Source: an uncultured bacterium (GTDB lineage Bacteria; Krumholzibacteriota; Krumholzibacteriia; JAJRXK01). From it: a stretch of 58,367 nt of DNA. Every line of letters starts with the position of its first letter. Within the stretch, counting starts at the first letter, position 1. The position numbers were made by a program, and so were the translations under genes. The stretch covers positions 1 through 58,367 of the forward strand of contig CAZQHE010000005.1 in assembly GCA_964593155.1 (NCBI GenBank), written 5' to 3'. Shown piece by piece: positions 4,916 through 27,856 of this stretch. The notes beneath the pieces were generated by a model. The model saw only the letters and a program-made list of their open reading frames with translations. It did no database searches and was not told the DNA's origin.

Positions 4916-7900
4916 TCAACGTCCGTCGGGGACCCCCCGACCCGGGGTCCACGGCACGCCGGCGGCGTCGAGCTCACGCTCGAGGGCCGGCAGGTCGGTC
5001 CGGACGATCGTCTGCAGCTCCTCGCTCAGGGCCTCGAGGCGTTCCACGCCGATGCGCAGGGTCTCGCGGTGCATGGGCGTGGGGCCGTAGGTCGAGCGCG
5101 ACACGCCGGTCCGGGCCACGCCGATCCGGTCCTGGATCGAGATCGGACCTTCTTCGTTGTACCGTGCACGTCGGCGGTTGCCCCGCAGGCGCTCCTTCAT
5201 CTGTTCGACCTGCCGCTCGAGCGCGCGGGCGATCGCGCTCGGGCCGTCGGCCGGAACGGGAGCCCGCGCGAGGGCGGCCTTGATGGTGTCGATGCGCTCG
5301 GCGGTGTCGTCGAGCAGCGAACCCACCGCGCTCACGCGTCCCTGCACGTCCTCGAGCTCGCGGTGGAAGGCGGCCACGTCGTCGAGCGGTGCGCCGGGCA
5401 GGCCGCGCTCGCGCAGGGGAACCAGGTCGAAGCTCTCGCGGCCGGCGAGCACGGTGACCTCGCCGCGATGACGCTGCACGAGCTCCACACTGTAGGTTCC
5501 GGGGGCGGCCAGGAAGCCGTCGCCCTCGTCGACCTCGCCGTCGGTCTCGGCGCGGTGCGTCGGGTAGCGCAGGTCCCAGGCCACGCGGTGGATGCCGGCC
5601 GAGGTCGGACCCTCGACGTGACGGACCACGTTGCCGCCGGCGTCGCGCACGGTCAGCAGGATCGTGGGTTCGTCCTCGAGTTCCTCTTCGCGCAGGGCGT
5701 CCCAACCGGGATACGGCGTGTCGCCGCCCTCGGCCGCGATCTCCTTCTCCTGTTCCTGGCGTTCCTGCTCGCGCGTCTTCAGCGCGTCGCGCAGGTAGTA
5801 GGTGAAGACCGCGCCGAAGGGCGGGTTCGGCGCCACGTAGAAGGCGTCGCCCTGGCTGGCCTTCTGGCTGCCGCCGAGCACGCGGCGCTGCACGTACCAG
5901 TCGGCGTCCTCCACCTCGAACAGGTGCGCCGGCGACTCCAGCAGATCCTCGTCGATCTCGCGCAGGGGCTCGTAGTCGTCGAGCACGAAGAAGCCACGGC
6001 CGAAGGTGGCGCCGACCAGGTCGTTCTCGCGCCGCTGGATCACGAGGTCGCGGTAGGCGATGGTGGGCGAGCCACTGAGCTCGATCCAGCGTTCGCCGGC
6101 GTCGAGCGTGAAGAACACGCCGAACTCGGTGCCCAGGAAGAACAGCTCGGGGTCCTCGTGGTCCTGCACCATGCGCCACACCACGTGGCGGTCGGGCAGA
6201 TCGCCGGTCATCGATTCCCAGGAGCGGCCCCGGTCGGTGCTGCGCAGCACGTAGGGTGCGAAGTCGCCCATCTTGTGCGCGTCGAAGAGCGCGTACACGG
6301 TGTCGGAATCGTGCAGGTCGGCGCGGATGTCGTTGACGTAGGCGCGCTCGGGGACGTCGCCGAAGTCGTCGATCCGACGCCATGTCTCGCCGCCGTCCTC
6401 GGTCACCTGGATCAGGCCGTCGTCGGTTCCCACGTACATCAGGTTCTCGTCGAGCGGCGACTCGGCGATCGAGGTGATGGTGTTGAACATCGACATCGCG
6501 TAGAGGTCCCAGGGCGCGTCGATGCTCCACACGCGATCCATCATCTCCATGGTCAGACGGTCCTCGTCGCGCGTCAGGTCGCCGCTGAGCGCGCGCCAGC
6601 TGTCGCCGCGGTCGTCGCTGCGCCACAGGCGCTGACTGGCCACGTAGATCCGGGCGGGATCGTGCTGGCTGATCAGGATCGGGCTGTCCCAGTTCCAGCG
6701 GTCGTGGGGCTCGCCCTCGGCCGGCTGGGGCTGAATGTACAGGTACTCGCCGGTGACGCGGTCCACGCGCATGTGGTTCCCCTGCTGCCACTGCGAGTAG
6801 ATGATGTCGGGATCGCTGTAGTCGATCGCCGGCTCGTGGCCGTCGCCGAACATGGTGATCCGCCAGTCGCTGTTGCGGATCCCGTGCACGTTGTCGGTCG
6901 TGGTCGGGCCGTACTGCGTGTTGTTGTCCTGGGTGCCGCCGATCACGTGGTAGAAGGGCTCGTCGTAGTCCACGTCGAGCTTGTAGAACTGCGTGACGGG
7001 CAGGTTCGACACGAACTTCCACGACTGACCGCGATCCCAGCTCTCGTACACGCCGCCGTCGCAGCCGGCCAGCAGGTAGTCGGGGTCGTGCGGGGCGAAG
7101 GCCAGGGCGTGGTTGTCGACGTGCTTGTACTGCTCGTTCACGCCCTCGAAGGTCTCGCCGCCGTCGGTGGTGCGGTGCAGCCGCACGTCCATCTGGTACA
7201 CGGTGTGCCGGTGGTGGGGATCGGCGAAGATCTCCTGGTAGTAGTGTGGGCCGGTGCCACCGCTCAGGTAGTCGTTGCGCTTCTCCCAGCTCTCGCCGCC
7301 GTCGAGCGAGCGCCAGAAGCCGCCCTCGCGGTCGCCCAGTTCGATGGTGGCGTACACGATGTCGGGATCGTGGGGTGAGACGGTCAGGCCGATCTTGCCC
7401 ATGTCCTCCTGTGGCAGCCCGGTCGTCAGCTCGCGCCAGGTCCGGCCACCGTCGACGGACTTGTGGATCCCCGACTCGGGGCCGCCGTTCATGAGCGCGG
7501 CGACGGTGCGGAGACGCTGGTGGGTGGAGGCGTACATGACGTCGGGGTCGGTCGGATCGAGGTGGACCTCGTTCACGCCGGTCCACTCGCCGCCGCCGAG
7601 CACCTTGTTCCACGTCTCGCCGCCGTCCTCGCTCATGTACAGACCGCGCTGGCCGCCGCCCGACCACAGGGGGCCCTGCGCCGCGACGTACACCACGTTC
7701 GGCGCGCCCGGCCGGATCCGGATCATGCCGACGTGTTCGGACTCCTCGAGTCCCATGTGTTCCCAGGTGCGGCCGCCGTCTCGGCTGCGGTAGACGCCGT
7801 CGCCGTAGCCCACGTGCCGGCCGCTCACGTTCTCGCCCGTGCCGACCCACACGGTGTCGGGGTCGTTGGGGTCGAGCGTGATGCAGCCGATGGAATAGCT

Positions 7901-8183
7901 GCTCTGGTCGTCGAAGATCGGCGTCCACGTGGTGCCGGCGTTGGTGGTCTTCCACACGCCGCCGCTGCCGACGGCCACGTACCACGTGCCGGTGTCGTCG
8001 GGGTGGATGACGATGTCGGAGATCCGGCCGCTCATCAGGGCCGGGCCGATGCCGCGCAGCTCGAGGCCGGCGAAGGTGCCGGCGTTCATCCTGGTGTCGT
8101 CTTCGTCGTCGGCGTGTGCTGGCGTCGCGACGCTCACGACGAACGCGCACAGCAACACGGCGAACCACGGGATCCGGTGCATG
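4916..8183 (-). CDS. secreted BNR/Asp-box repeat (sortilin/VPS10-like, PSII-stability-factor-like) beta-propeller protein
   Basis: Start at MHRIPWFAVLLCAFVVSVATPAHA (signal peptide; cat at 8181-8183). Many S/TxDxGxTW Asp-box repeats (e.g. SRDGGRTWEHM, SVDGGRTWREL, TTDGGETF, STDRGRSWESM). Confidence 0.8.
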
Positions 8184-8386
8184 CGAAGGGCCTTTCGTGG
8201 GGCGATCCGCGCGATCGGTGCGCGAGGGCCGGAGGCGGGTCGCCGGGGTCTCGGTCGATGGACGGTCGATCCTAGTGCCCCGGCGGCGTCGATTCCAGCG
8301 CGGAAGCGGGAACCGACGCCGACAGCCGACCGCGCCGGATCGCACGATCTGGTATCCTCGCGGTGGAACCGTCGAAGGAGGACGTG

Positions 8387-9577
8387 ATGCGCTGGTGGCT
8401 GTTGCTCCTCGTCGTCGCGGGGTCGGCCGACGCCCTCGCGGCTCCCTACGCCGTGGGCGTGTCCGACATCGCGTTCGTCGATGCCGATCGTGACGGGCGT
8501 TCGGTCCCCACCGACCTCTACTACCCGGCGGCCACGGCCGGGACCGACGTTCCGGTGGCCGGAACGGACGGAGAACGCTTTCCCGTGGTCGTGCTCGGCC
8601 ACGGCTACCAGATCCCCGCCGATCGCTACGGCTGGATCGCCACCCGGCTGGCGTCGAGCGGGTTCGTGGTCGCCGCCCCGCGCACGGCCGGCGAACTCTT
8701 CCCGTCGCACGAGCAGTTCGGGCTCGATCTCGCCTTCGTGGTGCGCGCCCTGCGCGAGGCGGGCGACGATCCCCAGTCCCTCTTCGCCGATCGTATCGCC
8801 CCGACCGCGGCCGTGGCCGGTCACAGCATGGGAGGCGGCGCGTCGTTCCTGGCCGCGGCGAGTGACGCGTCGATCACTGCAGTCGTCAACTTCGCCGCCG
8901 CCGAGACGGATCCCTCGGCGATCGCGGCCTGCGGGCAGCTCGTCCGGCACGTGCTCATGTTCGCCGCCACCGACGACTGCGTGACCCCGCCGGCCGATCA
9001 CCAGATCCCCATGTTCCAGGCGCTGCTCGAGGGCGACCGCACGCTGGTGAGCATCGACGGCGCGAGTCACTGCCAGTTCGCCGAGTCGAGCTTCCTGTGC
9101 GAACTCGGTGAGTTCTGTTCGCCGTCGATCTCGCGGACCGAGCAGCACGACCTGACCTGGTTCCTGCTCGAGCCCTGGCTTCGGGGCATCCTGCGCGACG
9201 AGCACGATCAGCGGGCCCTGTTCCAGAACCGACTCGAAGAGCAGGCCGGGATCTCGTTCCTGCAGGCGGGCATCCCCGTCGACGCACCGGCCGCAGCGGA
9301 CCGTGCTCCGCGGCTGCGCGTGAGTCCGAATCCCTTCAACCCGGCCACCGAGATCCGGTTCGTGCTGCCGAATGCCACGACCGTTCAGCTCGACGTGTTC
9401 GCCGTCGACGGCCGCCACGTGCGGAGCCTGGTCTCGGACGACCGGGCCGCTGGTTCGCACACCGTGAGGTGGGACGGGCACGACGACGCGGGACGGAGCC
9501 TGGCCTCGGGCACCTACCGCGTCCTCCTACGAGCCGACGACCGGGTGCGGTCGCGCGCGGTGACCCTCCTGAAGTGA
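8387..9577 (+). CDS. secreted cutinase/PETase-like alpha/beta (dienelactone-type) hydrolase with C-terminal FlgD-Ig-like / T9SS-type sorting domain
   Basis: Signal peptide MRWWLLLLVVAGSADALA. Nucleophile elbow G-H-S-M-G-G (Ser about nt 8825). Candidate catalytic Asp in ATDDCVTP and His in DGASHCQF. The last about 85 aa (SPNPFNPATEIRF...GTYRVLL...VTLLK) match the Por_Secre_tail / FlgD Ig-like beta-sandwich. Confidence 0.75.
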   Translation: MRWWLLLLVVAGSADALAAPYAVGVSDIAFVDADRDGRSVPTDLYYPAATAGTDVPVAGTDGERFPVVVLGHGYQIPADRYGWIATRLASSGFVVAAPRTAGELFPSHEQFGLDLAFVVRALREAGDDPQSLFADRIAPTAAVAGHSMGGGASFLAAASDASITAVVNFAAAETDPSAIAACGQLVRHVLMFAATDDCVTPPADHQIPMFQALLEGDRTLVSIDGASHCQFAESSFLCELGEFCSPSISRTEQHDLTWFLLEPWLRGILRDEHDQRALFQNRLEEQAGISFLQAGIPVDAPAAADRAPRLRVSPNPFNPATEIRFVLPNATTVQLDVFAVDGRHVRSLVSDDRAAGSHTVRWDGHDDAGRSLASGTYRVLLRADDRVRSRAVTLLK

Positions 9578-9614: not shown

Positions 9615-10805
9615 TCAGCGTGATCCGTGGGGTTCCGGCTCCGTGAGGATCGGGAAGTACTTGATCACCAGCAGGTAGATCGTCCCCTGGATCGCGATCA
9701 GCCCGACCGTGGCGACCAGTTCCACCACGCTCGGGAAGTACACCGCACCGACGCCACCGTCGAAGGCGAGCCATCCGGCGTTCATGCGGTACATGGCGCC
9801 ACCCAACAGGATGAAGCACGCCATCCGGAACATGCACGACGGTCGCTCGCGCCGGGACTTGTCGACGATCATCGCCACACCTGGTACGAAGACGAAGGCC
9901 AGCTCCAGGATCACCAACCAGCTCTGCCAGCTGCCGTCGAACAGACGCATGAACTGGTCGCGCCAGATCAGGTCGCCCACCCGCAGTGCGCCGAAGAACA
10001 GGATGACGTAGGCCATGAAGTGTGCGAGGCGCGTGAGCGTGTGGTCGTAGTTCGGGCGCCCGTAGCGGCGGCTGAACAGGATGTAGGTGGCGATCACCAT
10101 GGCGTAGCCCAGGATCCAGCAGCTCACCAGGAAGAGCGCCGGGATCAGCGGCGTGTACCAAAGCGGGTGGACCTTGTGGCCGGCCAGCAGGTACAGCGAG
10201 CCGAGCGAGCTCTGGTGCATGGTCGGAAGCAGGATCCCCATGGCGATGATCCACGGCATGATCGCGTGCAGGACCTTCATTGCCTTCTCGGAGAATGCGG
10301 CCAGGCGCTTGCGGCCCGACTTGCGCCAGCGCTCGAGGAAGGCCGGCGACAGTTCGATCCACACCACGGCCACGTAGGCGGTGACGCACAGCGACACCTC
10401 GAGCAGCACGCTGTCGAGGTTCCACTCGCCCCAGTAGACGAAGACTCTCCAGATGTTCCATGGGCGGCCGATGTCGGCGGTCAGCGAGATGATGCCGATG
10501 GTGTAGCCCACCGCACTGGTCAGGAGCGCGTGGCGGACGATGGGATGGTAGCGATAGTGGTTCAGGACGTAGGTCACGAAGGCCAGGGCGTAGCCGCCCG
10601 AGCCGAGGGCCGTCAACACGATCACGTTGAAGACCTTCCACGTGCCCCACGGGAAGACGTCGGTCATGTTGGTCATGGGACCGAGGCCGACGACGAAACG
10701 GATCGCGACCAGGAGCGTCGCGATCAGACCGATGACGACGAGGGTTCGGTATCCGGCTGTCCACACGGGTCGGTGGACCGGCTCGACGGGTTGATGCGCG
10801 GACAT
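9615..10805 (-). CDS. NrfD/HybB-family integral membrane quinol-interacting subunit (hydrogenase-2 cytochrome b / polysulfide reductase NrfD-like)
   Basis: Start at MSAHQPVEP (cat at 10803-10805). Near-colinear similarity to E. coli HybB (FPWGTWKVFNVIVLTALGSGGYALAFVTYVLN...LLPTMHQSSLGSLYLLAGHKVHPLW). The upstream extension of the ORF is low-complexity junk. Confidence 0.75.
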   Translation of the reverse strand: MSAHQPVEPVHRPVWTAGYRTLVVIGLIATLLVAIRFVVGLGPMTNMTDVFPWGTWKVFNVIVLTALGSGGYALAFVTYVLNHYRYHPIVRHALLTSAVGYTIGIISLTADIGRPWNIWRVFVYWGEWNLDSVLLEVSLCVTAYVAVVWIELSPAFLERWRKSGRKRLAAFSEKAMKVLHAIMPWIIAMGILLPTMHQSSLGSLYLLAGHKVHPLWYTPLIPALFLVSCWILGYAMVIATYILFSRRYGRPNYDHTLTRLAHFMAYVILFFGALRVGDLIWRDQFMRLFDGSWQSWLVILELAFVFVPGVAMIVDKSRRERPSCMFRMACFILLGGAMYRMNAGWLAFDGGVGAVYFPSVVELVATVGLIAIQGTIYLLVIKYFPILTEPEPHGSR

Positions 10806-14595: not shown

Positions 14596-15530
14596 CCGGG
14601 GTGGATCGTTCGATCGGAGACTTCGGACCGGGGCCCCGGCCCGTCGAGTGGGTCCTCTGCGTGTACCTGGTCGTGACCGCGGTGCTGCTGGTGTTCGGCG
14701 AGCGCACGCTGCCGCATGCCTTCCTGCGTGCCGGCCTGCACGTGGCCGCCGTCGGTGCGATCGTCCTGATGGCGCGCGCCGAGTCGAGGGTGCCCCCCGT
14801 CGTGGCCCTGATCCGCCGCGTCTTCCCACTCGTCCTCGGGCCGCTCTTCTACCTCGAGATCGGTGTGCTCAACGACGTGATCTGGGGCGAGCGCTACTTC
14901 GATTCCTGCGTCGTGGCCGTCGAGAGGGCCCTCTTCGGTGTGGACACCTCGCAGGTCTTCGCTCGCGCGTGGCCGTGGGCCTGGTGGTCGGAACTCCTGC
15001 ACCTCGGGTACGGGTCGTACTACGCGTTGCCCGCGTCGTTGTTCGTGGTGCTGGCCGTGCGGAGGAAGTGGGCCGAGCTCGAGTGGTACCTGACCGTGCT
15101 CGCGTTGACCTTCACGTCGTGCCAGATCTGGTTCGTGCTCCTGCCGGTGACCGGTCCGTACCACTACTTCGGCCCGCTCGATCCGCCGGCTCCGGGGTCG
15201 TTCTTCCCGCCGCTGGTGAACTCGATCGTCAGCGGCGGGTCGTCGATCGGTACGGCGTTCCCATCGAGCCACGTGGCCGTGGCGTTCTGCGTGCTGGCGT
15301 GTGCGTGGAGAACCGACCGGACCACCGCCTGGGTGCTGGCCGTCCTCGTCACGCTGCTCACCGTGGGCACCGTGTACGGAGGCTTCCACTATCTCGTCGA
15401 CACGATCGCCGGCATCCTGTGGTGCGCGGTGACGTTCACGTTGGGGTCGTGGTTGCACCGGTGGCTGCGGGAGCGTCGTCTCACACCCCGACGCGCCGGT
15501 AGGCCCCGTAGTAGGCCTGCCGCTCGCTGA
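14583..15530 (+). CDS. PAP2-superfamily integral membrane protein (inositol-phosphoceramide / sphingomyelin-synthase-like head-group transferase or lipid phosphatase)
   Basis: Start MAVVTGV overlaps the previous stop by 13 nt. Multiple TM helices. PAP2 motifs C2 (PSSHVAV) and C3 (YGGFHYLVDTIAG). Only the last about 316 codons of the 1,232-aa tool ORF are credible. Confidence 0.65.
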   Translation: MAVVTGVDRSIGDFGPGPRPVEWVLCVYLVVTAVLLVFGERTLPHAFLRAGLHVAAVGAIVLMARAESRVPPVVALIRRVFPLVLGPLFYLEIGVLNDVIWGERYFDSCVVAVERALFGVDTSQVFARAWPWAWWSELLHLGYGSYYALPASLFVVLAVRRKWAELEWYLTVLALTFTSCQIWFVLLPVTGPYHYFGPLDPPAPGSFFPPLVNSIVSGGSSIGTAFPSSHVAVAFCVLACAWRTDRTTAWVLAVLVTLLTVGTVYGGFHYLVDTIAGILWCAVTFTLGSWLHRWLRERRLTPRRAGRPRSRPAAR

Positions 15531-16944
15531 TCTCCGAGGCCACGGCGAGGGCCCAGGCTCCCCACGCGGCGGCGAGCAGGGCCGTGGCTGGCCAGGCGAC
15601 CATGGCTCCCAGCGACGCGAGGACGAGGGTCAGCGTGGCCGCCACGGCGAGTCCCATACCCAGCGGAGTGGGGCCGAGCCGAGTGAGTTCGGCGTCGCGG
15701 CGACGCACGCGCACGCGATGTCCCAGCCCGAGTCGCAGTCCGATCCAGACGAACAGCAGGAGTGCGACCAGGCCCAGCGCCAGGGTCACCGCGGCCGAGG
15801 TCGGCAGCACGGTCGCCGGAGTCCGTGACCAGAGCAGCGCGTGCAGCGCGAGCCCGCCGGTCACGAGCGCGCTGGCCGTGAAGTTCACCGGGGTCAGGGC
15901 CGTGTTCCACACGGGAACGGTGCGCACGGTGTAGACCCTCGTCATGCCGAACAGATAGAGCGCCGCCGCGGGAAACGTGGACCAGGCGAAGACGGGCTCG
16001 CGGGTGGCGATCGCGGCCAGCGACGCGGCCAGGAATGTGACCGCCAGGAGGATCTCGCGGCTCAACCACGACTGACCGAGGTTGCGCAGCGCCCTCCATG
16101 CACGCACGGGCCGGCCGAGGTGGGCCGACGAGAGGGCCAGGGCGGCGAGCAGGAGCACGGCGGTGGCCGGCATGGCCACGCGGTCGACGGCGGCCGGATC
16201 GAAGGCCGGGCCTCGCGTCGACTCCTCGCTCAGGACCGCGCGCAGAAGGCCGGCTACGAGCGCGATGCCGGCGGCCATCTGCGACAGCAGCGTGAAGGCC
16301 ACCAGCGACCACTCGCGCAGGCCGCGCGCGGGTCGTGGCGTGAGGTCGGTGTCGGGCTCGTCGGAGCGGTCACTCGCCGCGTGCGGTGCCAGGTGCAGGG
16401 CGGGTTCGGTGAGGTTCACCGGAGGCAGCGGCGCGCTGCCGACCGCCATGTCGGGGGCGCCGTGCCGTGCGGTCAGGTCCTCGGGATCGCCGGCATCGAG
16501 CGCGCGTACGGGGCAGGCCTCCACGCAGGCGGGATCACGACCCTGCTCGAGGTCTTCGACGCAGAAGGTGCACTTGCTCATGGTGCCGAGCGTGTCGCTG
16601 TACTGCGGTGCGCTGTAGGGGCACACCCAGCCGCAGTAGCCACAGCCGAGACAATGCTCTGGATCGATCAGCACGATCCCGTCGTCACGCCGCACGATCG
16701 CCCGCGCGGGGCACCCTTCCAGGCAGATCGGCCTCTCGCAGTGGTTGCACGAGATCGACAGGTGGTAGGCGAACACGTCCTGCCGCCAGGCCGCGCCCTC
16801 GCGGATCCATCCGCCACCGGCCACCTCGGACACGCGACGCCACAGGCGGCCGACCTCGAGGTCGTTGCGATCCTTGCACGCCACCTGACAGGCCTTGCAG
16901 CCCGAGCAGGTGGAGGCGTCGAACCAGAAGGTCGTCCGGCGCAT
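15481..16944 (-). CDS. DmsB-like four-cluster [4Fe-4S] ferredoxin subunit fused to DmsC-like membrane anchor
   Basis: Start MRRTTFWFDASTCSGCKACQVACKD. Four Cys clusters (CSGCKAC, CNHCERPIC, CLGCGYCGWVC, CTFCVEDL...CVEACP) are followed by about 8 hydrophobic helices. Its ATG overlaps the stop of the upstream gene (ATGA at 16944). Confidence 0.8.
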   Translation of the reverse strand: MRRTTFWFDASTCSGCKACQVACKDRNDLEVGRLWRRVSEVAGGGWIREGAAWRQDVFAYHLSISCNHCERPICLEGCPARAIVRRDDGIVLIDPEHCLGCGYCGWVCPYSAPQYSDTLGTMSKCTFCVEDLEQGRDPACVEACPVRALDAGDPEDLTARHGAPDMAVGSAPLPPVNLTEPALHLAPHAASDRSDEPDTDLTPRPARGLREWSLVAFTLLSQMAAGIALVAGLLRAVLSEESTRGPAFDPAAVDRVAMPATAVLLLAALALSSAHLGRPVRAWRALRNLGQSWLSREILLAVTFLAASLAAIATREPVFAWSTFPAAALYLFGMTRVYTVRTVPVWNTALTPVNFTASALVTGGLALHALLWSRTPATVLPTSAAVTLALGLVALLLFVWIGLRLGLGHRVRVRRRDAELTRLGPTPLGMGLAVAATLTLVLASLGAMVAWPATALLAAAWGAWALAVASEISERQAYYGAYRRVGV

Positions 16945-19226
16945 CAGGATCGTTCCTCCACGCGGGCCACCTGCACCTGGGCCGTCTGCAGGGCGGCGCC
17001 GAAGGCGTAGGGCGTCCAGCGCTCGGACGTGAGCACGTTCACCGAGCCGCGCCGGTCGATCCCGTTCTCGTCGGGGGTCCACCAGCTTCCCTGCGGCAGG
17101 TTCACCACGCCCGGCAGGATGCGACGCGTGATCGCACACGGAATGCGGGTCTCGCCGCGGTGGTTGAACACGCGGACCTCGTCGCCGTCGAGCAGACCGC
17201 GCTCGGCGGCATCGATCGGATGGATCCACAGCCGCTGCGGATGGGCCTCGCGCAGCCAGTCGTTGTTGTCGTGCGTCGAGTGCACCCGCGCCAGCGTGTG
17301 GTTGGCGATGCACTGCAGCGGATGACGTTCGGCCTCGTCGCCGAAGGGGCTCTCCCATTCCTGGACGTACTTGGGAACCGCGGGCGCGACGTCGGGTCGG
17401 CCGAAGTGGTGCATGGCCAGCGAGAAGAGTTCGATCTTCCCCGAAGGCGTGGTCAGCGGATGCGCCTCGGGGTCACGGCGGAAGTCCTCGAGGGCGACGA
17501 TCGGCTCGGTGACCGGCGTCGACCACGCGCCGACGTTCTGCTCGACCATCTCCTCGAAGTCGGGCAGGTCGGGCAGCCAGCGTTCGCGGTAGCGATCGAA
17601 GATCCACTTCGTCCACGCGCGCTCGTCGCGGCCTTCGGTGTAGTCCTCGCCCACGCCCAGGCGCTCCGCCAGATCGGCGGCGATGCGGTAGTCGCTCCTC
17701 GACTCGCCCAGCGGCTCGACGACCTGCGGCATCAGGATGACTTCCTGGCCGTACTTCCAGCCGTCCTCCAGTCCCCAGGTCTCGAACTGCGTGCAGGCGG
17801 GCAGCACCAGATCGGCGAAGCGGGCACTGGGCGTGAGGAAGTTGTCCTGGACGACCAGGAACTCGACCTTCGAGGTGTCGCGCAGCAATTCGCCGGTGCG
17901 GTTGAGGTCGCCGTGCTGGTTGGCGAGGATGTTCGACGCGACCGACCAGATCAGCTTGACGTCGCTCTCGAGCGTGTCGACGCCACGAGCGTCGAGCCCG
18001 CGCACGCCGTGGTCGCGGCCCATGCGGCGGCCCTCGCGGATGGCCTCGGTCCACAGGAAACACGGGATGTCGAGGCCGTAGTCGTTGGTGCCGGTGGGGA
18101 AGGCGTTCCAGAAGGGTCCGGCGGTCGGGGCGACCGACAGGCCGCTCGTCCACGCGCCGTGCACGCCCACGTTGCCGGTGATCGCGGCCAGGGCCATGCC
18201 CGCGCGCACGACCTGTTCGCCGTAGGCGCGGCGCTGCATGGCGTAGCCCTGGTACAGCACGCCCGGTTTGATCGTGGCGTACTCGCGGGCCAGGCGCACG
18301 ATGGTGTCGACGGGAACGGCGGTGATTTCCGAGGCCCACTGTGGGGTCTTCGGCGTGCCGTCGCGCGTGCCGAGGACGTAGTCGGTGTACGACTCGGCCC
18401 CGGCGGCCTCGGCCGGCATCTGTGTGGCGTCGAATCCCGAGCAGCAGCGGTCGACGAAGTCGCGGTCGTGTAGTTCCTCGTCGAGGATCACGTGGGCCAT
18501 GGCGGTCATCAGCGCCGTGTCGGTGCCCGGGCGCAGCGGGATCCACTCGTCGGCCAGGCTCGCGGTGCTCGGCGTGTGGCGGGGGTCGATGCACACCACG
18601 CGCGCGCCGCGTTCGCGGGCCTTCATCACGAAGTAGTCGCTGTTCGTGCCGTCGCGGGCCTCGGCCGGGTTCCATCCCCACATGAGGATCAGCTTGGCGT
18701 TCAGCCAGTCCTGGCGCTCGTTGCCGCACTTCGTGGTGCCGACCGTGTCGGGAGTGGCGATGTTGGTCGCGCCCCAGCTGTAGCTGTTGTAGATGCCGAG
18801 CTGGCCACCGATGCAGTTGAACAGGCGGCGCGCCGTCTGCGAGCCCGTGGTCTGTCCGTAGCCGCCGGTGCCGTAGGGTACGAAGAGCGCACCGTTGCCG
18901 TACTCGGCGCGGATGCGGCCGATCTCGGATGCGAACTCGTCGAGGGCGTCGTCCCACGACACGGGTTCGAAGGATCCGCTGCCGCGCGGGCCGGTGCGGC
19001 GCAGGGGCTGCGTCAGGCGATCGGGATGGTTCTGCCGCCGCAGGTAGGCACGGCCGCGCGTGCAGGCACGAAGACGCGGATTCGCGATCGGATGCTCGGG
19101 CCGGTCGTCGGTCTCGATCCGCACGATCTGCCCGTCGCGCACGTGGGCGCGCAACAGACATCGCCCGCCACAGTTGTGGGCGGGGCAGCCGGTGCGGACG
19201 ACGGTGGTGCCGCCTTCGGCGGTCAT
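16944..19226 (-). CDS. DMSO-reductase-family molybdopterin oxidoreductase catalytic subunit (DmsA-like), no Tat signal peptide
   Basis: Start MTAEGGTTVVRTGCPAHNCGGRC (N-terminal FS0 Cys motif). Colinear similarity to E. coli DmsA (CTRGRAYLRRQNHPDRLTQP, IDPRHT, LTTPSGKIELFS). No twin-arginine leader appears before the Cys motif. Confidence 0.85.
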   Translation of the reverse strand: MTAEGGTTVVRTGCPAHNCGGRCLLRAHVRDGQIVRIETDDRPEHPIANPRLRACTRGRAYLRRQNHPDRLTQPLRRTGPRGSGSFEPVSWDDALDEFASEIGRIRAEYGNGALFVPYGTGGYGQTTGSQTARRLFNCIGGQLGIYNSYSWGATNIATPDTVGTTKCGNERQDWLNAKLILMWGWNPAEARDGTNSDYFVMKARERGARVVCIDPRHTPSTASLADEWIPLRPGTDTALMTAMAHVILDEELHDRDFVDRCCSGFDATQMPAEAAGAESYTDYVLGTRDGTPKTPQWASEITAVPVDTIVRLAREYATIKPGVLYQGYAMQRRAYGEQVVRAGMALAAITGNVGVHGAWTSGLSVAPTAGPFWNAFPTGTNDYGLDIPCFLWTEAIREGRRMGRDHGVRGLDARGVDTLESDVKLIWSVASNILANQHGDLNRTGELLRDTSKVEFLVVQDNFLTPSARFADLVLPACTQFETWGLEDGWKYGQEVILMPQVVEPLGESRSDYRIAADLAERLGVGEDYTEGRDERAWTKWIFDRYRERWLPDLPDFEEMVEQNVGAWSTPVTEPIVALEDFRRDPEAHPLTTPSGKIELFSLAMHHFGRPDVAPAVPKYVQEWESPFGDEAERHPLQCIANHTLARVHSTHDNNDWLREAHPQRLWIHPIDAAERGLLDGDEVRVFNHRGETRIPCAITRRILPGVVNLPQGSWWTPDENGIDRRGSVNVLTSERWTPYAFGAALQTAQVQVARVEERS

Positions 19227-19329
19227 GCGGGGCCTCGGGGCTCGGGCGGGTTCCGGGAACGGATCGAGTATCGGAGTCGATCGCGGCGGGCTCAACCGGG
19301 TGGCGGCCCAGGTCACGATTCTGGGGGCG

Positions 19330-20508
19330 TCACCGTCGGGTGCTCGGGGTCGGGAGTGCGACCACACCCCGCGGGGCGAGGCTGGCGGCCAGCATGACGG
19401 TGTCGATGTCCTCGTGCTCACGCCACGCACGGCTGTCCCGGGCTTCCGCGGACCGCCAGAACGACTCGATGGTCTCGCGCAGGGCAACGAAGTCCGCCAG
19501 GGCGGGGAAACGGTCCTGGACCGCCGCCAGACCGATGGACAGTCCGAACTCACGGAAGGCCAGTCGGGTCTCGGCCGGACCCGTCAGGCCCAGACGCCGC
19601 GGCCCGATCACGAGACCCGCGCGTGCCGACGAGAGCAGGTCGGCGTTGAGGGGATCGTCGGGATCGATCTGATCGAGGTGGACGAGGTCGAGGAGCAGAC
19701 CACCGATACCGAGCGGATCGGTCGTGGCCAGTCCGCGTACGTCGATCATGTCCCGCAGTTGTTCGGCGATCGCGGTGAGGGTCGGCGCTTCGGGATCGTC
19801 GCCGAGGGCGTGACGGGTGGCCTCGAGCTGGCGCGCCGTGACGTGGCCGTCGAGCGGATCGTGCTGGCCGGTCGACGGGACCAGCGGCCGCGACAGGTCG
19901 ATGCTCATCTTCCACGCCAGCGCCGGTCGGCCGAAGGGCGTGTCGCGGCGGCCGAACGCCTGCACGGCGGTCTCGCACAGTTCGCGCGACCAGCGGGCGT
20001 ATCGCAGCTCGCCCGTGGTGCGCGCGGCACGGTCCAGCGCCTGCATCCAGCGCGTGAGGTAGTGGAAGTACTGTCCGTCGCGATCCCACTCCTCCTGTGG
20101 GTCGAAGGCATCGTGCCGTCCGCGCTCGGGGCGCTCCTTGCCGATCCGCAGGCCACCGCGTGTGGGATGGAGTTCGCCCTCGGCATCGTCCAGGCCGCTC
20201 AGCCAGCCCTGACGACGGTCGTCGTCGCGATGCCGGCCCAGCACGCGGTGGACCTGGTCGATCAGGGTGAGGGCGCGCGAACGGAATCGCGTGTCGCCGG
20301 TGTGTTCGTACAGACCGAGGTCGGTCATCACCGCGAAGGCGTCGGTCCACAGGTACCGGCGCGGCGGGTCCGACGACGTCACACCCGTGCGGTCGGCGAA
20401 TCGATCGAGGAGGTCGACGGCTTCGAGCAATCGCGGGTCGGGCACGACGGGCTCCTTCGTGGAGGAACGCAGCGTGCCCAGCCTGTGGCTCGGGAGCGGG
20501 CGGCGCAT
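19330..20508 (-). CDS. hypothetical protein, first gene of the molybdoenzyme operon
   Basis: About 390 aa of good composition (YLWTDAFAV, GQYFHYLTRWMQALDRA). Same strand as dmsA and 104 nt upstream of it. No family recognised; a six-hairpin glycosidase-like fold is a guess. Confidence 0.55.
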   Translation of the reverse strand: MRRPLPSHRLGTLRSSTKEPVVPDPRLLEAVDLLDRFADRTGVTSSDPPRRYLWTDAFAVMTDLGLYEHTGDTRFRSRALTLIDQVHRVLGRHRDDDRRQGWLSGLDDAEGELHPTRGGLRIGKERPERGRHDAFDPQEEWDRDGQYFHYLTRWMQALDRAARTTGELRYARWSRELCETAVQAFGRRDTPFGRPALAWKMSIDLSRPLVPSTGQHDPLDGHVTARQLEATRHALGDDPEAPTLTAIAEQLRDMIDVRGLATTDPLGIGGLLLDLVHLDQIDPDDPLNADLLSSARAGLVIGPRRLGLTGPAETRLAFREFGLSIGLAAVQDRFPALADFVALRETIESFWRSAEARDSRAWREHEDIDTVMLAASLAPRGVVALPTPSTRR

Positions 20509-20569
20509 CGGGGGCATTCCGACCACAGCGGTGGTCCGCCCCCGAGGCGATGGCGTCGGGGCGGGTCGC

Positions 20570-21640
20570 TCAGCCCGCCGGCGACAGGTCGGTGGGCGGC
20601 AGCGGCATGTCGTCGATCACCGTCCGGAGCAGTTCCTGCTTCTCGTCCCACGGCAGGAAGGCGTGACGGAAGCCGTTCAGCGCGATCTCGCGGACGTGGG
20701 CCGCACCCACGCCGCACTCGCTGTGCGTCCGCCAGAGTTCCTCGGTCACGCTGGTGCGCGTGAACAGACGGTTGTCGGTGTTCACGGTGACGGGAACGCC
20801 CGCCTCGACGATCCGACGAATCGGATGCTCCTCGAGACTCGGCACGACCTTCGTCTGCACGTTGCTCGACGGGCAGATCTCCAGGGCGATCTGACGGTCG
20901 ACCACGTAGCGCATGAGCGCCGCGTCCTCGACCAGCGTGATCCCGTGGCCGATCCGGTGCGCGCCGTTGTACAGAAGCGCCTGCCGGATCGAGTCGGGGC
21001 CCCAGGCCTCGCCGGCGTGGATGGTCAGCCCGAGCAGGTGGTTGCGGGCGTGGTAGAAGGCCGACAGGTGGGCCTTGGCGGGGTTGCCGGCCTCACCGCC
21101 CGCGAGGTCGAAGGCCACGACGCCGCGGTCGGCGTAGGCCACGGCCAGCTCGGCCTGCTGCAGCGAGGCGCTCTCGAAACGGTCGCGCAGCCCGCAGATG
21201 ATCAGCCCCGTGCGGATTCCGAACTCCTTCTCGGCCGCGGCCAGCCCGTCGAGCACGGCCTCGTTCACCTCTTCGAGGCTCAGGCCCTCCTCTGTGTGCA
21301 GGATCGGGCCGTACCGGACCTCGAGATAGCGCACGTTCTCCCGCGCGTTGTCCTCGGCGAGTTCGTAGGCAGCGCGGCGCAGCGCGTCGGGCGACTGCAG
21401 CAGCGGAATCGTGTAGCCGAACCAGGCGAGGAAGGCCTCGAGCGATTCGCTGTCCTCGATCTGCATGAGCACGTCCTGCAGACCGTCGACACTGTCGGAC
21501 GGCAGCAGGTCGAGTTTGCCCTGCTCGCGGGCGAACTCGAGCATGGTCTCGAGCCGGAGCGAGCCGTCGAGGTGGCAGTGGAGTTCGGCCTTGGGCCAGG
21601 CCAGGAGTTCGTCGCGGGTGAGGACGGTGGCGGCCTTCAT
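20570..21640 (-). CDS. add: adenosine deaminase
   Basis: Start MKAATVLTRDELLAWPKAELHCHLDGS. Zn-binding HxHxDG signature and C-terminal ...TVNTDN... motif. Confidence 0.85.
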   Translation of the reverse strand: MKAATVLTRDELLAWPKAELHCHLDGSLRLETMLEFAREQGKLDLLPSDSVDGLQDVLMQIEDSESLEAFLAWFGYTIPLLQSPDALRRAAYELAEDNARENVRYLEVRYGPILHTEEGLSLEEVNEAVLDGLAAAEKEFGIRTGLIICGLRDRFESASLQQAELAVAYADRGVVAFDLAGGEAGNPAKAHLSAFYHARNHLLGLTIHAGEAWGPDSIRQALLYNGAHRIGHGITLVEDAALMRYVVDRQIALEICPSSNVQTKVVPSLEEHPIRRIVEAGVPVTVNTDNRLFTRTSVTEELWRTHSECGVGAAHVREIALNGFRHAFLPWDEKQELLRTVIDDMPLPPTDLSPAG

Positions 21641-26020: not shown

Positions 26021-27856
26021 TTGTGCGGGGCGCAACAGGAAGGACGGTACGTGACCCACGAAGTCCATCCCGAAGAAGCTGCGTCGAAACGCAAGCTCGC
26101 AGAGAAGTTGAAACGGGCCGAGAAGACGGCTCGCCAGAAGGCCATCAAGGAGCGCGAGAAGTTCCGCGGCCTGCAGATCCGACCCACCGCGTCGTTCTTC
26201 GACGATGCCGAGGCCAAGGAGCCCGGCGAGGACAACTGGGAAGGGTTCGGGTTCGACATCCACCCGCACGTGACGCTCACATCGTCTCTGGTGCTGGCGG
26301 TGTTCATCACCCTCACCCTCATGTTCCAGGACAAGGCGGCGGCGGTCGCCGACAGCGCGCTCGCCTGGATGTCGAGCGGCTTCGGCTGGTTCTTCATCCT
26401 CGCCGCGAACATCTTCATCGGAGCGGCGTTGTTCTTCGCCTTCAGCCGCTTCGGGAAGATCAGGATCGGTGGATCCGACGCCCAACCCGAGTTCTCCACA
26501 CCTGCCTGGTACGCCATGCTGCTCAGCGCGGGCATGGGGATCGGTCTGATGTTCTGGAGCGTTGGCGAGCCCATGTTCCACTACGCCACGCCCTCGCCCA
26601 TGTTCAACGGCATCGAGCCGCAATCGCCCGAAGCGGCGCAGGCGGCGATGGGGGTGACCTATTTCCACTGGGGCCTGCATCCGTGGGCCATCTACGCAGT
26701 GGTCGCGTTGGGTCTGGCCTTCTTCGCCTACAACCGCGGATTGCCGCTGACGATCCGTTCGATCTTCCATCCGCTCCTGGGCAACCGGATCCACGGTGGC
26801 TGGGGCAATCTGATCGACGTGCTGTCGGTGTTGGCGACGCTCACAGGTCTGGCGACGTCGCTCGGACTGGGCGTGAAACAGGTGAACGCCGGTCTGAACT
26901 ACCTGTTCGGTCTGAACATCAGTCCGGAGATGCAGGTCATCCTGATCGCCGTGATCACCGGATTCGCCGTGATGTCGGTGATGGCCGGCCTCGATGGCGG
27001 CGTGAAACGTCTGAGCGAGTGGAACATGGGCCTGGCGGGCATCCTGATGATCTTCCTGCTGATCGCGGGCCCGTCGATCTACATCCTCAGCGGCTTCACC
27101 CAGAACATGGGCTTCTACCTGACCCACCTTGCCGAACTGAGTCTGTGGACCGAGACCTTCCGCGAGTCGAACTGGCAGGGCAGCTGGACGGTGTTCTACT
27201 GGGCATGGTGGATCTCGTGGTCGCCCTTCGTGGGCATGTTCATCGCCCGTATCTCGAAGGGCCGTTCGGTCCGCGAGTTCGTACTGGGCGTGATGATCGT
27301 TCCCACGCTGCTGTCGTTCGTGTGGATGTCGGTGTTCGGCGGATCCGCCCTGTCGCTGCAGGCGAGCGGAACCGCGGACATTCTCTCGGCGGTGAACGAG
27401 GACGTCTCGACGGCGCTCTTCGCCATGTTCGAGCACTTCCCGATGACCCAGGTGCTGTCGGGCATCGGAATCATTCTGGTGACGGTGTTCTTCGTCACCT
27501 CCTCGGACTCGGGCTCGCTGGTCGTCGACCATCTCACCTCGGGTGGGAAGCTCGACTCGCCGGTTCCGCAGCGCGTGTTCTGGGCCGTCATGGAGGGTGT
27601 CGTGGCCGCGGTGCTGCTGCTCGGCGGCGGATTGAGTACGCTTCAGACGGCAGCGATCACCACGGGGCTGCCCTTCGTCGTCGTTCTGTTGCTGATCATC
27701 TACGCGCTCTACGTGGGTCTATCGCAGGAGCTCTACGTGGAGGAAGCGGTCGAGAAGAAGCTGCAGGACGTGGTGGAACAGCACCGTGTGACCGAGGCGG
27801 TGGCTTCGGCGCAGGAGGACCTGACCGACGCGAAGGACGGCAAGCCGGTGTCCTGA
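26021..27856 (+). CDS. BCCT-family betaine/carnitine/choline transporter
   Basis: 12-TM protein with the BCCT Trp-rich signature (WTVFYWAWWISWSPFVGMFIARIS). Charged N- and C-terminal extensions. Confidence 0.85.
   Translation: MCGAQQEGRYVTHEVHPEEAASKRKLAEKLKRAEKTARQKAIKEREKFRGLQIRPTASFFDDAEAKEPGEDNWEGFGFDIHPHVTLTSSLVLAVFITLTLMFQDKAAAVADSALAWMSSGFGWFFILAANIFIGAALFFAFSRFGKIRIGGSDAQPEFSTPAWYAMLLSAGMGIGLMFWSVGEPMFHYATPSPMFNGIEPQSPEAAQAAMGVTYFHWGLHPWAIYAVVALGLAFFAYNRGLPLTIRSIFHPLLGNRIHGGWGNLIDVLSVLATLTGLATSLGLGVKQVNAGLNYLFGLNISPEMQVILIAVITGFAVMSVMAGLDGGVKRLSEWNMGLAGILMIFLLIAGPSIYILSGFTQNMGFYLTHLAELSLWTETFRESNWQGSWTVFYWAWWISWSPFVGMFIARISKGRSVREFVLGVMIVPTLLSFVWMSVFGGSALSLQASGTADILSAVNEDVSTALFAMFEHFPMTQVLSGIGIILVTVFFVTSSDSGSLVVDHLTSGGKLDSPVPQRVFWAVMEGVVAAVLLLGGGLSTLQTAAITTGLPFVVVLLLIIYALYVGLSQELYVEEAVEKKLQDVVEQHRVTEAVASAQEDLTDAKDGKPVS

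Follow-up and report, generated by a model that had tools for sequence, protein, structure and literature searches.

Three co-directional open reading frames lie on the minus strand of the window analyzed here (a stretch of 58,367 nucleotides), at the places given for them by an earlier sequence-only reading (Table 1). They raise the question of where an enzyme of the dimethyl sulfoxide reductase family would operate if its catalytic subunit lacks a twin-arginine (Tat) leader and its ferredoxin subunit is fused to the membrane anchor, and of whether the third gene belongs with it. The earlier reading called the arrangement little studied, and we likewise found no paper on the Tat-less, fused arrangement; a 2025 paper reported that about 4% of DmsA sequences have no Tat signal and called their role an open question. 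We consider it probable that dmsA and dmsBC encode a two-polypeptide, membrane-bound, cytoplasm-facing quinol:S-/N-oxide oxidoreductase of the DmsABC type.

Table 1. Positions of the genes, modules and residues discussed in the text
Feature	Position	Strand	Remarks
dmsA, Mo-bisMGD catalytic subunit	16944..19226	-	760 aa, without Tat leader; stop codon 16944-16946
FS0 [4Fe-4S] cysteine motif of DmsA, C14/C19/C23/C55	19062..19187	-	invariant in 30/30 fused-clade and 17/17 sister-clade sequences
Ser150 codon, predicted Mo ligand	18777..18779	-	invariant in 63/63 aligned DmsA sequences
dmsBC, ferredoxin subunit and membrane anchor in one polypeptide	15481..16944	-	487 aa
DmsB module, residues 1-162	16459..16944	-	Cys groups C13/16/19/23, C66/69/74/78, C98/101/104/108, C125/128/140/144; no signal peptide
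Hydrophilic linker, residues 163-211 (49 residues)	16312..16458	-	motif PLP..LTEPAL..PH....R; Arg-rich end PRPARGLRE directly ahead of TM1
DmsC/NrfD-type anchor module, residues 212-487	15484..16311	-	8 transmembrane helices; PF04976
His275 codon, end of TM2	16120..16122	-	motif S..HLG.P..A.RAL; invariant in alignments A1 and A3
g1, conserved uncharacterized (alpha/alpha)6-barrel protein	19330..20508	-	adjacent gene, outside the unit; 392 aa, or 371 aa if start is GTG 20445
g1-dmsA spacer	19227..19329	-	103 nt; promoter-like TTGAGC (19295-19290), 17-nt gap, GATACT (19272-19267); GAGG ahead of dmsA ATG

The catalytic subunit and the fused electron-transfer subunit

In a profile search, DmsA scored 813.9 bits against TIGR02166 (dmsA_ynfE; cut-off, 777.7), and it carries the Pfam domains Molybdop_Fe4S4, Molybdopterin and Molydop_binding; NCBI holds the exact 760-aa protein. 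The match spans profile positions 44 to 794 only, leaving the leader part of the profile unmatched. As originally described, the protein has no Tat motif at its N terminus, which begins with MTAEGGTTVVRTGCPAHNCGGRC, just 13 residues ahead of the FS0 cysteine motif. In R. sphaeroides DMSO reductase (1eu1), the residue that aligns with Ser150 is the DYS-motif serine, known as the Mo ligand Ser147. The ORF extends further upstream, and here the earlier reading was right that the extension is not a Tat leader but mistaken in finding no RR dipeptide, since it contains VWRRSRTV. We rejected this motif as a Tat leader because it is followed by no hydrophobic h-region, lies ca. 100 residues ahead of the Cys motif and falls within the overlap onto the 3′ end of g1, and because the RR-bearing extension is missing from L001, a relative with a 95%-identical DmsA, where an in-frame stop codon stands 35 codons upstream in its place.

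The two genes meet at TGATG, not at the ATGA previously placed at position 16944; the dmsBC ATG, preceded by a GGAGGA Shine-Dalgarno sequence, and the dmsA stop have one base in common (a 1-nt overlap). Within dmsBC, TIGR02951 (DmsB) covers residues 5 to 162 (222.5 bits; cut-off, 214.1) and PF04976 (DmsC) residues 208 to 393 (74 bits). The AlphaFold model (pTM 0.86) places a PsrB-like module ahead of eight transmembrane helices (212-238, 250-276, 293-314, 317-338, 350-374, 384-415, 427-448 and 453-480), with no extra helix in the linker, and so bears out the description of a DmsB that runs on into a DmsC of about eight helices. A frameshift hiding a stop codon at this junction had been named as a possible artefact; however, the reading frame holds four complete Cys groups with no stop and no frame change, and the 487-aa fusion recurs in L001 (84% identical) and across more than 100 protein clusters. 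DmsBC, like DmsA, has its exact sequence at NCBI (P0121), and a near-identical cluster mate bears the name [quoted passage not shown]

The DmsB module opens directly at its first Cys group, and all 16 of its cysteines are invariant in alignment A1; in A3, 15 are invariant and C125 is conserved in at least 90% of sequences. The linker, which appears in both alignments, occurs only in the fused class, and separate DmsC proteins start at the equivalent of dmsBC residue 209, without the linker segment. His275 would occupy the place of the quinol-site residue His65 of E. coli DmsC (PMC8076601), an assignment based on motif and position and not on an alignment with the E. coli protein. Of this three-module architecture, just one structure has been solved, that of Thermus thermophilus PsrABC (PDB 2VPW). 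Its PsrB (2vpw_B) resembles the DmsB-module model with a TM score of 0.74, and the eight-helix anchor model resembles both PsrC (2vpw_C; TM 0.54) and ActC. Because the PsrC N terminus lies on PsrB's side, a B-C fusion is geometrically simple. Unlike the window enzyme, PsrABC is periplasmic and Tat exported, consists of separate subunits and acts on another substrate.

Coupling of Tat loss and fusion among related loci

Among 80 loci from other genomes, a Tat-bearing DmsA lay beside separate dmsB and dmsC genes in 32/32 cases and a fused dmsBC beside a Tat-less dmsA in 30/30; the separate DmsB proteins of Tat-bearing loci measure 177 to 209 aa and the fused DmsBC proteins 395 to 508 aa. Judged from these loci, absence of the Tat leader from the catalytic subunit is evolutionarily coupled to fusion of the ferredoxin with the anchor. 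On a neighbor-joining tree without bootstrap support, the Tat-less/fused DmsA sequences, that of the window included, form one clade, and the correlation should thus be read as the outcome of one evolutionary event, kept ever since, and not as many independent replicates. This clade spans at least six phyla (Chloroflexota, Planctomycetota, Gemmatimonadota, Acidobacteriota, Bacillota [Syntrophothermus] and the window's own lineage, probably Krumholzibacteria), and its sister is a Tat-bearing Aminicenantes/Acidobacteria clade. The two clades have the same FS0 cysteines, Ser150, Y118, Y149 and W151, and only 8 of ca. 750 columns discriminate between them; these clade-specific substitutions include R to L at 62 and Y to T at 644, where all Tat-bearing sequences have Y.

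None of the 30 DmsA N termini in the fused clade shows an RR motif with an h-region. At related fused loci, an in-frame stop occurs as few as 4 to 20 codons upstream of the conserved Cys-motif region (for example, 4 in L069, 5 in L007, 6 in L066, 9 in L074 and 14 in L018). Tat calls for L022 and L075 were regular-expression false positives: neither has an h-region, and in both, fewer than 30 residues separate the RR from the Cys motif. TorD/DmsD-family genes (PF02613) were present at 14 of 43 separate-type loci and absent from all 39 fused loci and from the entire window. The only neighbor enriched at fused loci was a HAMP histidine kinase (12/39), and no conserved extra gene accompanied these 39 loci. 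As a side observation, L049 is frameshifted, and P0255, a cluster member of 1247 aa, reads through a frameshift.

Orientation and proposed mechanism

DmsA would hold Mo-bisMGD and FS0, with the four-cluster DmsB module serving as the electron-transfer chain. Since neither has an export signal, both would be loaded with cofactor in the cytoplasm and remain there. The DmsB module, tethered by the hydrophilic linker to TM1 of the anchor, would therefore cause TM1 to enter the membrane from the cytoplasmic side. In E. coli DmsC and T. thermophilus PsrC, the N termini and Fe-S subunits lie in the periplasm, and the window's anchor would therefore be inverted relative to both. The quinol site (the His275 region) would lie near the cytoplasmic face because it adjoins the DmsB module. 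Electrons would presumably pass from quinol through FS4 to FS1, then to FS0, Mo and an intracellular sulfoxide or N-oxide. As protons would be released and taken up on the same side, no proton gradient is expected from the enzyme itself. If this is true, its role may be that of an electron sink, or of a reductase, driven by quinol, that repairs or detoxifies S-/N-oxides in the cytoplasm; candidate substrates are DMSO, TMAO, methionine sulfoxide and N-oxides, both substrate and catalytic direction being predicted purely from family membership. A possible physiological counterpart is BisC, a cytoplasmic reductase of S-oxides (biotin sulfoxide and free methionine sulfoxide). However, BisC/TorZ-type S-oxide reductases consist of one soluble subunit and have neither FS0 nor DmsB nor a quinol anchor, and the bisC_fam model scores the window DmsA at 444 (cut-off, 1017).

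With the E. coli-type DmsABC/YnfEFGH systems (TIGR02166, TIGR02951 and PF04976), the window enzyme has in common the catalytic subfamily (its DmsA lying above the cut-off), the FS0 cysteines, the Ser Mo ligand, the four-[4Fe-4S] DmsB module, the eight-helix DmsC anchor and a His motif at the end of TM2, where His65 lies. It differs in having no Tat leader, in joining DmsB and DmsC into one polypeptide through a clade-specific linker, in having no DmsD/TorD gene near dmsA and in its predicted orientation, toward the N-side rather than the P-side. NarGHI respiratory nitrate reductase, another member of the DMSO reductase superfamily, is likewise membrane bound, faces the cytoplasm and has no functional Tat export. 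However, it is anchored by NarI, a dihaem cytochrome b, instead of an NrfD/DmsC-type protein, and, as would not be expected of the window enzyme, it forms an electrogenic redox loop; the NarG and NarH models score the window proteins at only 83.9 (cut-off, 1084) and 54.5 (cut-off, 524).

The only described precedent for a cytoplasm-facing inverted anchor is SoeABC, the sulfite:quinone oxidoreductase of Allochromatium vinosum and Aquifex aeolicus, an NrfD-type complex expected to be inverted, with its quinone site at the N-side, since SoeA and SoeB have no export signals (PMC8076601). It too combines Mo-bisMGD, a four-cluster Fe-S subunit and an NrfD-type anchor, but its catalytic subunit is of a family other than dmsA_ynfE, SoeB and SoeC are separate and it oxidizes sulfite, whereas the window enzyme is inferred to be a reductase. 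That this sole described inverted complex is a dehydrogenase, together with the eight clade-specific substitutions, leaves some room for a cytoplasm-facing enzyme that uses another substrate or runs oxidatively, passing electrons from a reduced S or N compound to the quinone pool. We think this unlikely, given that DmsA exceeds the dmsA_ynfE cut-off while falling far under those of other Mo-enzyme models, and that the Ser ligand, Y118, Y149 and W151 are those of the Tat-bearing sister clade.

The distribution of positive charge bears on which face the DmsB side occupies. The window protein has 16 K+R on the DmsB side versus 5 on the opposite side; the corresponding values are 13.4 versus 1.8 for the fused class (n = 32), 9.0 versus 6.4 for Tat-associated separate DmsC (n = 26) and 10.9 versus 4.8, in the same direction as the fused class, for the nearest Tat-bearing sister clade (n = 16), the Mann-Whitney P values being inflated by shared ancestry. 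Because the sister clade is biased likewise, though its DmsB side must be periplasmic, many of the DmsB-side K/R residues are probably functional rather than topogenic. The bias agrees with a cytoplasmic DmsB side but is not decisive, the sole distinguishing point being the stronger depletion on the opposite side (1.8 versus 4.8).

Sequence alone thus does not force inversion, and the active site is unchanged relative to the exported sister enzymes, as would be expected if DmsA and the DmsB module were exported after all, through a noncanonical or unrecognized signal or by hitchhiking on another Tat substrate, with the anchor in its canonical orientation. This we regard as distinctly improbable: the fused-clade N termini lack RR motifs with h-regions and many have in-frame stops few codons upstream, the DmsB module starts directly at a Cys group, TorD/DmsD is missing from the fused loci and no conserved extra gene apart from the enriched kinase accompanies them. 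To our knowledge, moreover, Tat is the only export route for Mo and Fe-S proteins with cofactor loaded. With the Tat-less DmsA and the fusion coupled throughout, a cytoplasm-facing active site, as the sequence-only reading proposed, is the most likely outcome.

The neighboring gene and the extent of the unit

The g1 product matches nothing in Pfam, NCBIfam or PDB sequences, in keeping with the claim that it has no recognizable family, although some 8000 homologues at roughly 50% identity occur across phyla. Its predicted structure (pLDDT 94) is an (alpha/alpha)6 barrel like those of GH76 mannanases and sugar epimerases/isomerases. The start codon may be not ATG 20508 but GTG 20445, ahead of which stands a GAAGGAG Shine-Dalgarno sequence; the form deposited at NCBI has 392 aa.

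It had been suggested that this gene leads the operon and encodes an accessory factor or substrate-processing enzyme, and g1 is indeed adjacent and co-directional, an arrangement kept in the close relative L001. However, synteny with L001 extends across the whole region (amylase, adenosine deaminase and PAP2), so the adjacency there reflects recent common ancestry. Conservation of the three-gene arrangement fails elsewhere: no g1 homologue lies within 7 kb of dmsA at any of the 80 related loci, all fused-clade members included, and g1 homologues in five other genomes have unrelated neighbors. The fold is of a glycosidase/epimerase type, and the spacer ahead of dmsA, ca. 95% identical to that of L001, is more strongly conserved than the adjoining end of the g1 coding sequence. 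The spacer may act as a promoter, its TTGAGC-17-GATACT matching 8/12 consensus positions, which is under the scan threshold. A functional three-gene operon is accordingly very improbable, and on these comparisons g1 is an unrelated neighbor and the unit the two-gene dmsA-dmsBC pair.

Finally, there is next to no chance that an assembly or annotation error accounts for the fusion or the missing leader. The window probably derives from a metagenome assembly, its proteins being deposited at NCBI with neither name nor accession and their cluster mates coming from MAGs, and frameshifted relatives exist (L049 and P0255, above). As far as sequence data allow, however, the artefact reading is refuted: the same architecture recurs across several phyla, in 30 independent genomes, as well as in the protein clusters noted above, and the linker has a conserved motif of its own.

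A leaderless DmsA and a fused DmsBC

The region consists of three minus-strand genes that run in the same direction on a contig with a G+C content of ca. 70%: g1, the first gene, encoding a protein of about 390 aa; dmsA, encoding a DMSO reductase-type catalytic subunit; and dmsBC, encoding a ferredoxin module and a membrane anchor in one polypeptide. The dmsA stop codon and the dmsBC start codon overlap by one base in the sequence TGATG (the sequence-only reading gave ATGA), with GGAGGA upstream. A convergent PAP2-family gene is the 3′ neighbor of the dms genes, and the upstream neighbors are a gene for adenosine deaminase and a divergent gene of the alpha-amylase family. The annotation of a cluster mate nearly identical to DmsBC names a Candidatus Krumholzibacteria bacterium, which makes this the probable lineage of the window.

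Positions of the dms genes, g1, and other features of the window
Feature	Position	Strand	Remarks
g1	19330-20508	minus	392-aa form deposited at NCBI; alternative start GTG 20445, with strong Shine-Dalgarno sequence GAAGGAG
g1-dmsA spacer	19227-19329		103 nt
dmsA	16944-19226	minus	760 aa
dmsBC	15481-16944	minus	487 aa, single ORF
BCCT-family transporter gene	26021-27856	plus	5.5 kb from dmsA
Generic kinase gene	32684-34675		12 kb away
Orphan NrfD-family (PF03916) gene	9615-10805	minus	ca. 396 aa, start MSAHQPVEP; 4.7 kb downstream of the dms genes
BNR/sortilin-repeat protein gene	4916-9481		1521 aa
ORF without Pfam match	1033-4338	plus	1101 aa, GC3 0.86

DmsA is a member of the dmsA_ynfE subfamily, with a score of 813.9 bits against TIGR02166 (cutoff, 777.7). 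We found no sign that it belongs to the SoeA lineage; dmsA_ynfE was the best model, above its cutoff, and no Soe model appears among the best 25 of 27 NCBIfam matches. The protein carries the cysteines of the N-terminal [4Fe-4S] cluster FS0 (C14, C19, C23, and C55), and its Ser150, which is invariant in 63 sequences, aligns with the DYS-motif serine of the Rhodobacter DMSO reductase DorA (1eu1), the molybdenum ligand of that enzyme. The match to TIGR02166 spans only profile positions 44-794, so that the leader-covering portion of the profile is left unmatched. An RR motif followed by an h-region is absent from the N termini of DmsA in the window, in its close syntenic relative L001, and in 29 other loci of the clade with fused DmsBC. 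The leader had been reported missing in the sequence-only reading, and this absence is real; the accompanying statement that the upstream extension of the ORF has no RR motif was inaccurate, as an RR dipeptide (VWRRSRTV) occurs in the extension ahead of the ATG. That dipeptide is nevertheless unsuitable as a Tat leader: no hydrophobic stretch follows it, and it precedes the Cys motif by ca. 100 residues and overlaps the end of g1. In L001, which has a DmsA 95% identical to that of the window, the RR extension is replaced by an in-frame stop 35 codons upstream.

The DmsB module of DmsBC (residues 5-162; TIGR02951, 222.5 bits against a cutoff of 214.1) has four complete Cys groups, and its 16 cysteines are all invariant in one alignment (A1), while in another (A3) 15 are invariant and C125 is conserved in at least 90% of the sequences. 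The linker that follows (residues 163-211) is hydrophilic, ends in the Arg-rich stretch PRPARGLRE, and has a conserved motif, PLP..LTEPAL..PH....R; the DmsC module matches PF04976 at residues 208-393 (74.1 bits). In an AlphaFold model built with 53 homologues (pTM 0.86), eight transmembrane helices follow the linker, and there is no additional helix inside it. When the model was compared by Foldseek, one half matched PsrB (TM 0.74) and the other half PsrC and ActC; the PDB sequence matches included no DmsABC structure.

That DmsB and DmsC are truly fused, as had been claimed from the sequence, is borne out by the same 487-aa protein in L001, by the linker with its own conserved motif, and by a protein search that returned more than 100 clusters of 400 to 540 aa with both ferredoxin and DmsC Pfam domains. 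When the linker and anchor were used to query 1.84 billion representative proteins, separate DmsC proteins were found to start at the equivalent of fusion residue 209, without the linker, and fused proteins made up about one-tenth of the 150 best matches. The fused architecture is already in the databases, though it is not recognized as such: public annotation calls the protein a “complex B subunit” or a “DmsC/YnfH family anchor.” In the literature, we found no description of the fusion or of a Tat-less Dms enzyme. One JGI contig encodes an apparent DmsA-DmsB-DmsC triple fusion of 1247 aa (P0255); we rejected it, as its junction (GAGRAGGGPILMRRTTFWF) is an out-of-frame read-through of the dmsA 3′ end. 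This protein shares a 90% cluster with the window DmsA, and the frameshift read-through has merged DmsA and DmsBC proteins into that one cluster.

Comparison of 80 dms loci

We compared 80 loci taken from a scan of one genome per species (GTDB), with an alignment of fusions as the query, and then extracted their ORFs; one of them, L049, is a frameshifted assembly. In half of the loci, dmsB and dmsC are separate genes, head to tail. All 32 loci with a canonical DmsA leader (SRRSFLKW with an h-region after it) encode a separate DmsB (177 to 209 aa) and then a separate DmsC (ca. 290 aa), and all 30 loci with a fused DmsBC (395 to 508 aa) have a leaderless DmsA, often with an in-frame stop only 4 to 20 codons upstream. 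Two loci, L022 and L075, seemed to be exceptions because a regular expression flagged them as Tat bearing, but they have no h-region, fewer than 30 residues separate the RR from the Cys motif, and they fall inside the fused clade.

In a neighbor-joining tree of 63 DmsA sequences, the Tat-less enzymes with fused DmsBC all fall in one clade, which holds Chloroflexota (mostly Anaerolineales), Planctomycetota, Gemmatimonadota, Acidobacteriota, a Syntrophothermus, and the window. The sister clade consists of Tat-bearing, separate-subunit enzymes from Aminicenantes and Acidobacteria, which share ca. 64% identity with the window DmsA. Between the two clades, there is no difference in the FS0 cysteines, Ser150, Y118, Y149, or W151, and only eight alignment columns tell the clades apart. 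The two types of locus also differ in their accessory genes. TorD/DmsD-family genes (PF02613) were found at 14 of 43 separate-type loci versus 0 of 39 fused-type loci, and MobA-like genes at 19 of 43 versus 0 of 39; neither kind is present anywhere in the window.

A gene for a HAMP-domain sensor histidine kinase lies near dmsA-dmsBC at 12 of the 39 fused-type loci (L008, L014, L025, L028, L037, L038, L040, L043, L047, L050, L056, and L068) versus 3 of the 43 separate-type loci, and this kinase may serve some members of the fused clade as a dedicated regulator. The only kinase match in the window is a generic one. Two other loci, L067 (a Bacillota MAG) and L080 (Desulfitobacterium sp.), encode members of a distant Mo-enzyme family with ca. 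32% identity to DmsA and the N terminus NVCPRNCYGTCG. Both are Tat-less, yet they have separate genes for a DmsB-like protein (180 aa) and a DmsC-like protein (267 to 290 aa), whose anchors show no clear charge bias (4 to 6 versus 5 to 7). These may represent a second, independent Tat-less arrangement.

Orientation and proposed working of the enzyme

Mo-bisMGD and Fe-S proteins are loaded with their cofactors in the cytoplasm and can leave it only via Tat. Neither DmsA nor the DmsB module carries any export signal, and since the latter is tethered to TM1 through the hydrophilic, Arg-rich linker, TM1 must begin on the cytoplasmic side. In the PsrABC structure, the N terminus of PsrC and the Fe-S subunit are periplasmic. 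The N terminus and Fe-S subunit are likewise periplasmic in the case of E. coli DmsC (PMC8076601), and relative to both of these the anchor of DmsBC would therefore be inverted. On this reasoning, we consider it likely that DmsA-DmsBC faces the cytoplasm.

Charge bias provided a further test of orientation. We applied the positive-inside rule by counting Lys and Arg residues in loops delimited with the help of the alignment and the AlphaFold model. In the window protein, there are 16 on the DmsB side versus 5 on the opposite side, the fused class averages 13.4 versus 1.8 (n = 32), and Tat-associated separate DmsC proteins average 9.0 versus 6.4 (n = 26); in Actinomycetota, Bacillota, and some Chloroflexota, the canonical opposite bias is seen. 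A clean charge flip between the fused and separate classes nevertheless did not survive tighter loop boundaries and comparison with the sister clade alone, as the Tat-bearing sisters are similarly biased (10.9 versus 4.8; n = 16), in the same direction as the fused class though their DmsB side must be outside. Many basic residues on the DmsB face (for example, those of the invariant HLG.P..A.RAL..L..SWLSRE loop) are thus functional rather than topogenic. The depletion on the far side is significantly stronger in the fused class (1.8, versus 4.8 in the sisters), with P values inflated by shared ancestry. Taken together, the charge bias is consistent with inversion but falls short of proof. In six loci of the sister clade (L016, L017, L024, L027, L031, and L063), the separate DmsC, which pairs with a Tat-bearing DmsA, has 12 to 16 Lys and Arg residues on the DmsB (periplasmic) face and 2 to 4 on the cytoplasmic face, a distribution contrary to the positive-inside rule. 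Topological “frustration” of the anchor in this lineage may have preceded the inversion.

In its parts, the enzyme shares much with DmsABC: the dmsA_ynfE subfamily, the FS0 cluster and Mo serine, the four [4Fe-4S] Cys groups of DmsB, and the eight-helix DmsC anchor. However, the window DmsA lacks the Tat leader, and B and C are one polypeptide, both here and at 30 related loci. To our knowledge, the catalytic subunit is periplasmic in all characterized DmsABC-type enzymes, and this feature of DmsABC, with DmsAB on the periplasmic side, is probably not shared by the window enzyme either. SoeABC likewise combines an NrfD-type anchor with A and B subunits that lack export signals, a likeness of architecture only; unlike the window enzyme, it has an A subunit of a different lineage and separate SoeB and SoeC proteins, and it is a dehydrogenase. 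In its working, the enzyme would be closest to SoeABC; by sequence, it is a DmsABC-family enzyme. A 2021 review (PMC8076601) names SoeABC as the sole NrfD-anchored complex expected to be inverted, given that export signals are missing from its A and B subunits, and a 2025 paper found that ca. 4% of DmsA-like sequences have no Tat signal and called their role an open question. The locus described here belongs to a coherent clade, spread over several phyla, of DmsA-DmsBC enzymes that probably face inward, and a clade so coherent and widespread gives that question of nonperiplasmic DmsA-like enzymes a concrete form.

How might such an enzyme work? We propose that (mena)quinol would be oxidized at a predicted site beside His275, now near the cytoplasmic face. 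This residue is invariant and lies in a conserved motif at the end of TM2; by motif and position, rather than by alignment to E. coli DmsC, it is assigned as the counterpart of His65, a quinol-site residue of that protein (PMC8076601). Electrons would then travel via the four DmsB-module clusters to FS0 and on to Mo, and a sulfoxide or N-oxide would be reduced in the cytoplasm. Because protons would be released and taken up on one side, the enzyme itself would form no gradient, and its role may be that of an electron sink or of a quinol-driven reductase of intracellular S- or N-oxides. Methionine sulfoxide, pyrimidine N-oxide, and nicotinamide N-oxide are efficient substrates of E. coli DmsABC (PMC12096835), which makes such substrates plausible here; quinol-driven reduction of cytoplasmic methionine sulfoxide, N-oxides, or imported TMAO or DMSO is a possible function.

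The fusion itself may fix the new orientation, in that a large, folded, cytoplasmic N-terminal domain would force TM1 into an N-in position. On balance, we lean toward a single inside-out event, in which loss of the Tat leader was locked with fusion of the Fe-S subunit to the anchor, TM1 became N-in, and the eight-helix anchor and its quinol site were flipped, followed by horizontal spread to at least six phyla of what would be a quinol-driven enzyme that reduces sulfoxides and N-oxides inside the cell. If so, the enzyme would join SoeABC as a second inverted NrfD-type complex, and it would be the first one whose exported sister clade is near enough (ca. 64% identity and the same active site) for direct comparison. 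It would also provide a natural experiment on the reorientation of a polytopic membrane protein, with the fused large cytoplasmic domain as the topology determinant. From a practical viewpoint, a fused DmsBC could serve as an annotation rule that predicts a Tat-less, inward-facing enzyme, and dmsA matches in metagenomes from Chloroflexota, Planctomycetota, Gemmatimonadota, Acidobacteriota, and Krumholzibacteria need not mean periplasmic respiration of DMSO or TMAO.

g1 and other neighbors

The sequence-only reading had placed g1 in a three-gene operon as a possible accessory or substrate-processing factor. The two-gene core of that interpretation was right, but the inclusion of g1 was not. No g1 homologue lies within 7 kb of dmsA at any of the 80 loci, and in five other genomes the homologues are found among unrelated genes. 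Only L001 shares the adjacency of g1 and dmsA, and L001 is syntenic with the window over the entire neighborhood. The spacer between the two genes is ca. 95% identical to that of L001, which makes it more conserved than the adjoining 3′ coding sequence of g1. Given its absence elsewhere, the synteny of L001, and the conserved spacer, we conclude that g1 is a neighbor that lies outside the dmsA-dmsBC unit. The spacer, a possible promoter or operator of dmsA, holds TTGAGC and GATACT separated by a 17-nt gap (found by eye, with 8 of 12 positions matched), while a scan of positions 15200-20800 for promoter and terminator consensus sequences found nothing. Short repeated CGAT/TCGA elements also are present in it.

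As for the protein itself, g1 was said to have no recognizable family, and we likewise obtained no Pfam, NCBIfam, or PDB sequence match, nor, in these same collections, any match to a defined glycoside hydrolase or epimerase sequence family. It does have relatives: a family of ca. 8000 scored matches, all hypothetical proteins, with ca. 50% identity across Gammaproteobacteria, Acidobacteriota, Myxococcota, and others. For a protein without annotation, it is remarkably conserved: among 42 sequences of this family, 75 columns are invariant, with many invariant Asp, Glu, His, Trp, and Arg residues. The predicted structure (pLDDT 94.1) is an (alpha/alpha)6 barrel, for which the nearest solved folds in Foldseek were GH76 alpha-mannanases (4v1s: E value, 1.7e-5; TM 0.59), cellobiose 2-epimerases, and mannose isomerase, at E values of ca. 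1e-5, TM 0.55 to 0.6, and 9 to 15% identity. On the basis of this model, g1 appears to have the fold of the six-hairpin glycosidase/AGE-epimerase superfamily. A TorD/DmsD/NarJ chaperone, which the sequence-only reading had already discounted, is a poor fit: there is no Pfam match (and so none to PF02613), and a barrel of 371 to 392 aa is set against an all-helical protein of ca. 200 aa. A TorD HMM built from the loci also found no match in the window. The g1 family is worth characterizing in its own right.

Three other features of the window deserve mention. The 1101-aa ORF is coding-like in its GC3, and it has no Pfam match at E ≤ 1e-5. An orphan NrfD-family membrane protein, whose gene lies next to that of a large BNR/sortilin-repeat protein, has no Fe-S or catalytic partner adjoining it. 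Finally, a transporter of the BCCT (betaine/choline/carnitine-type) family is encoded both here and in the syntenic L001; as pure speculation, such a transporter, if it imported an N-oxide or sulfonium osmolyte, could feed a cytoplasmic reductase.
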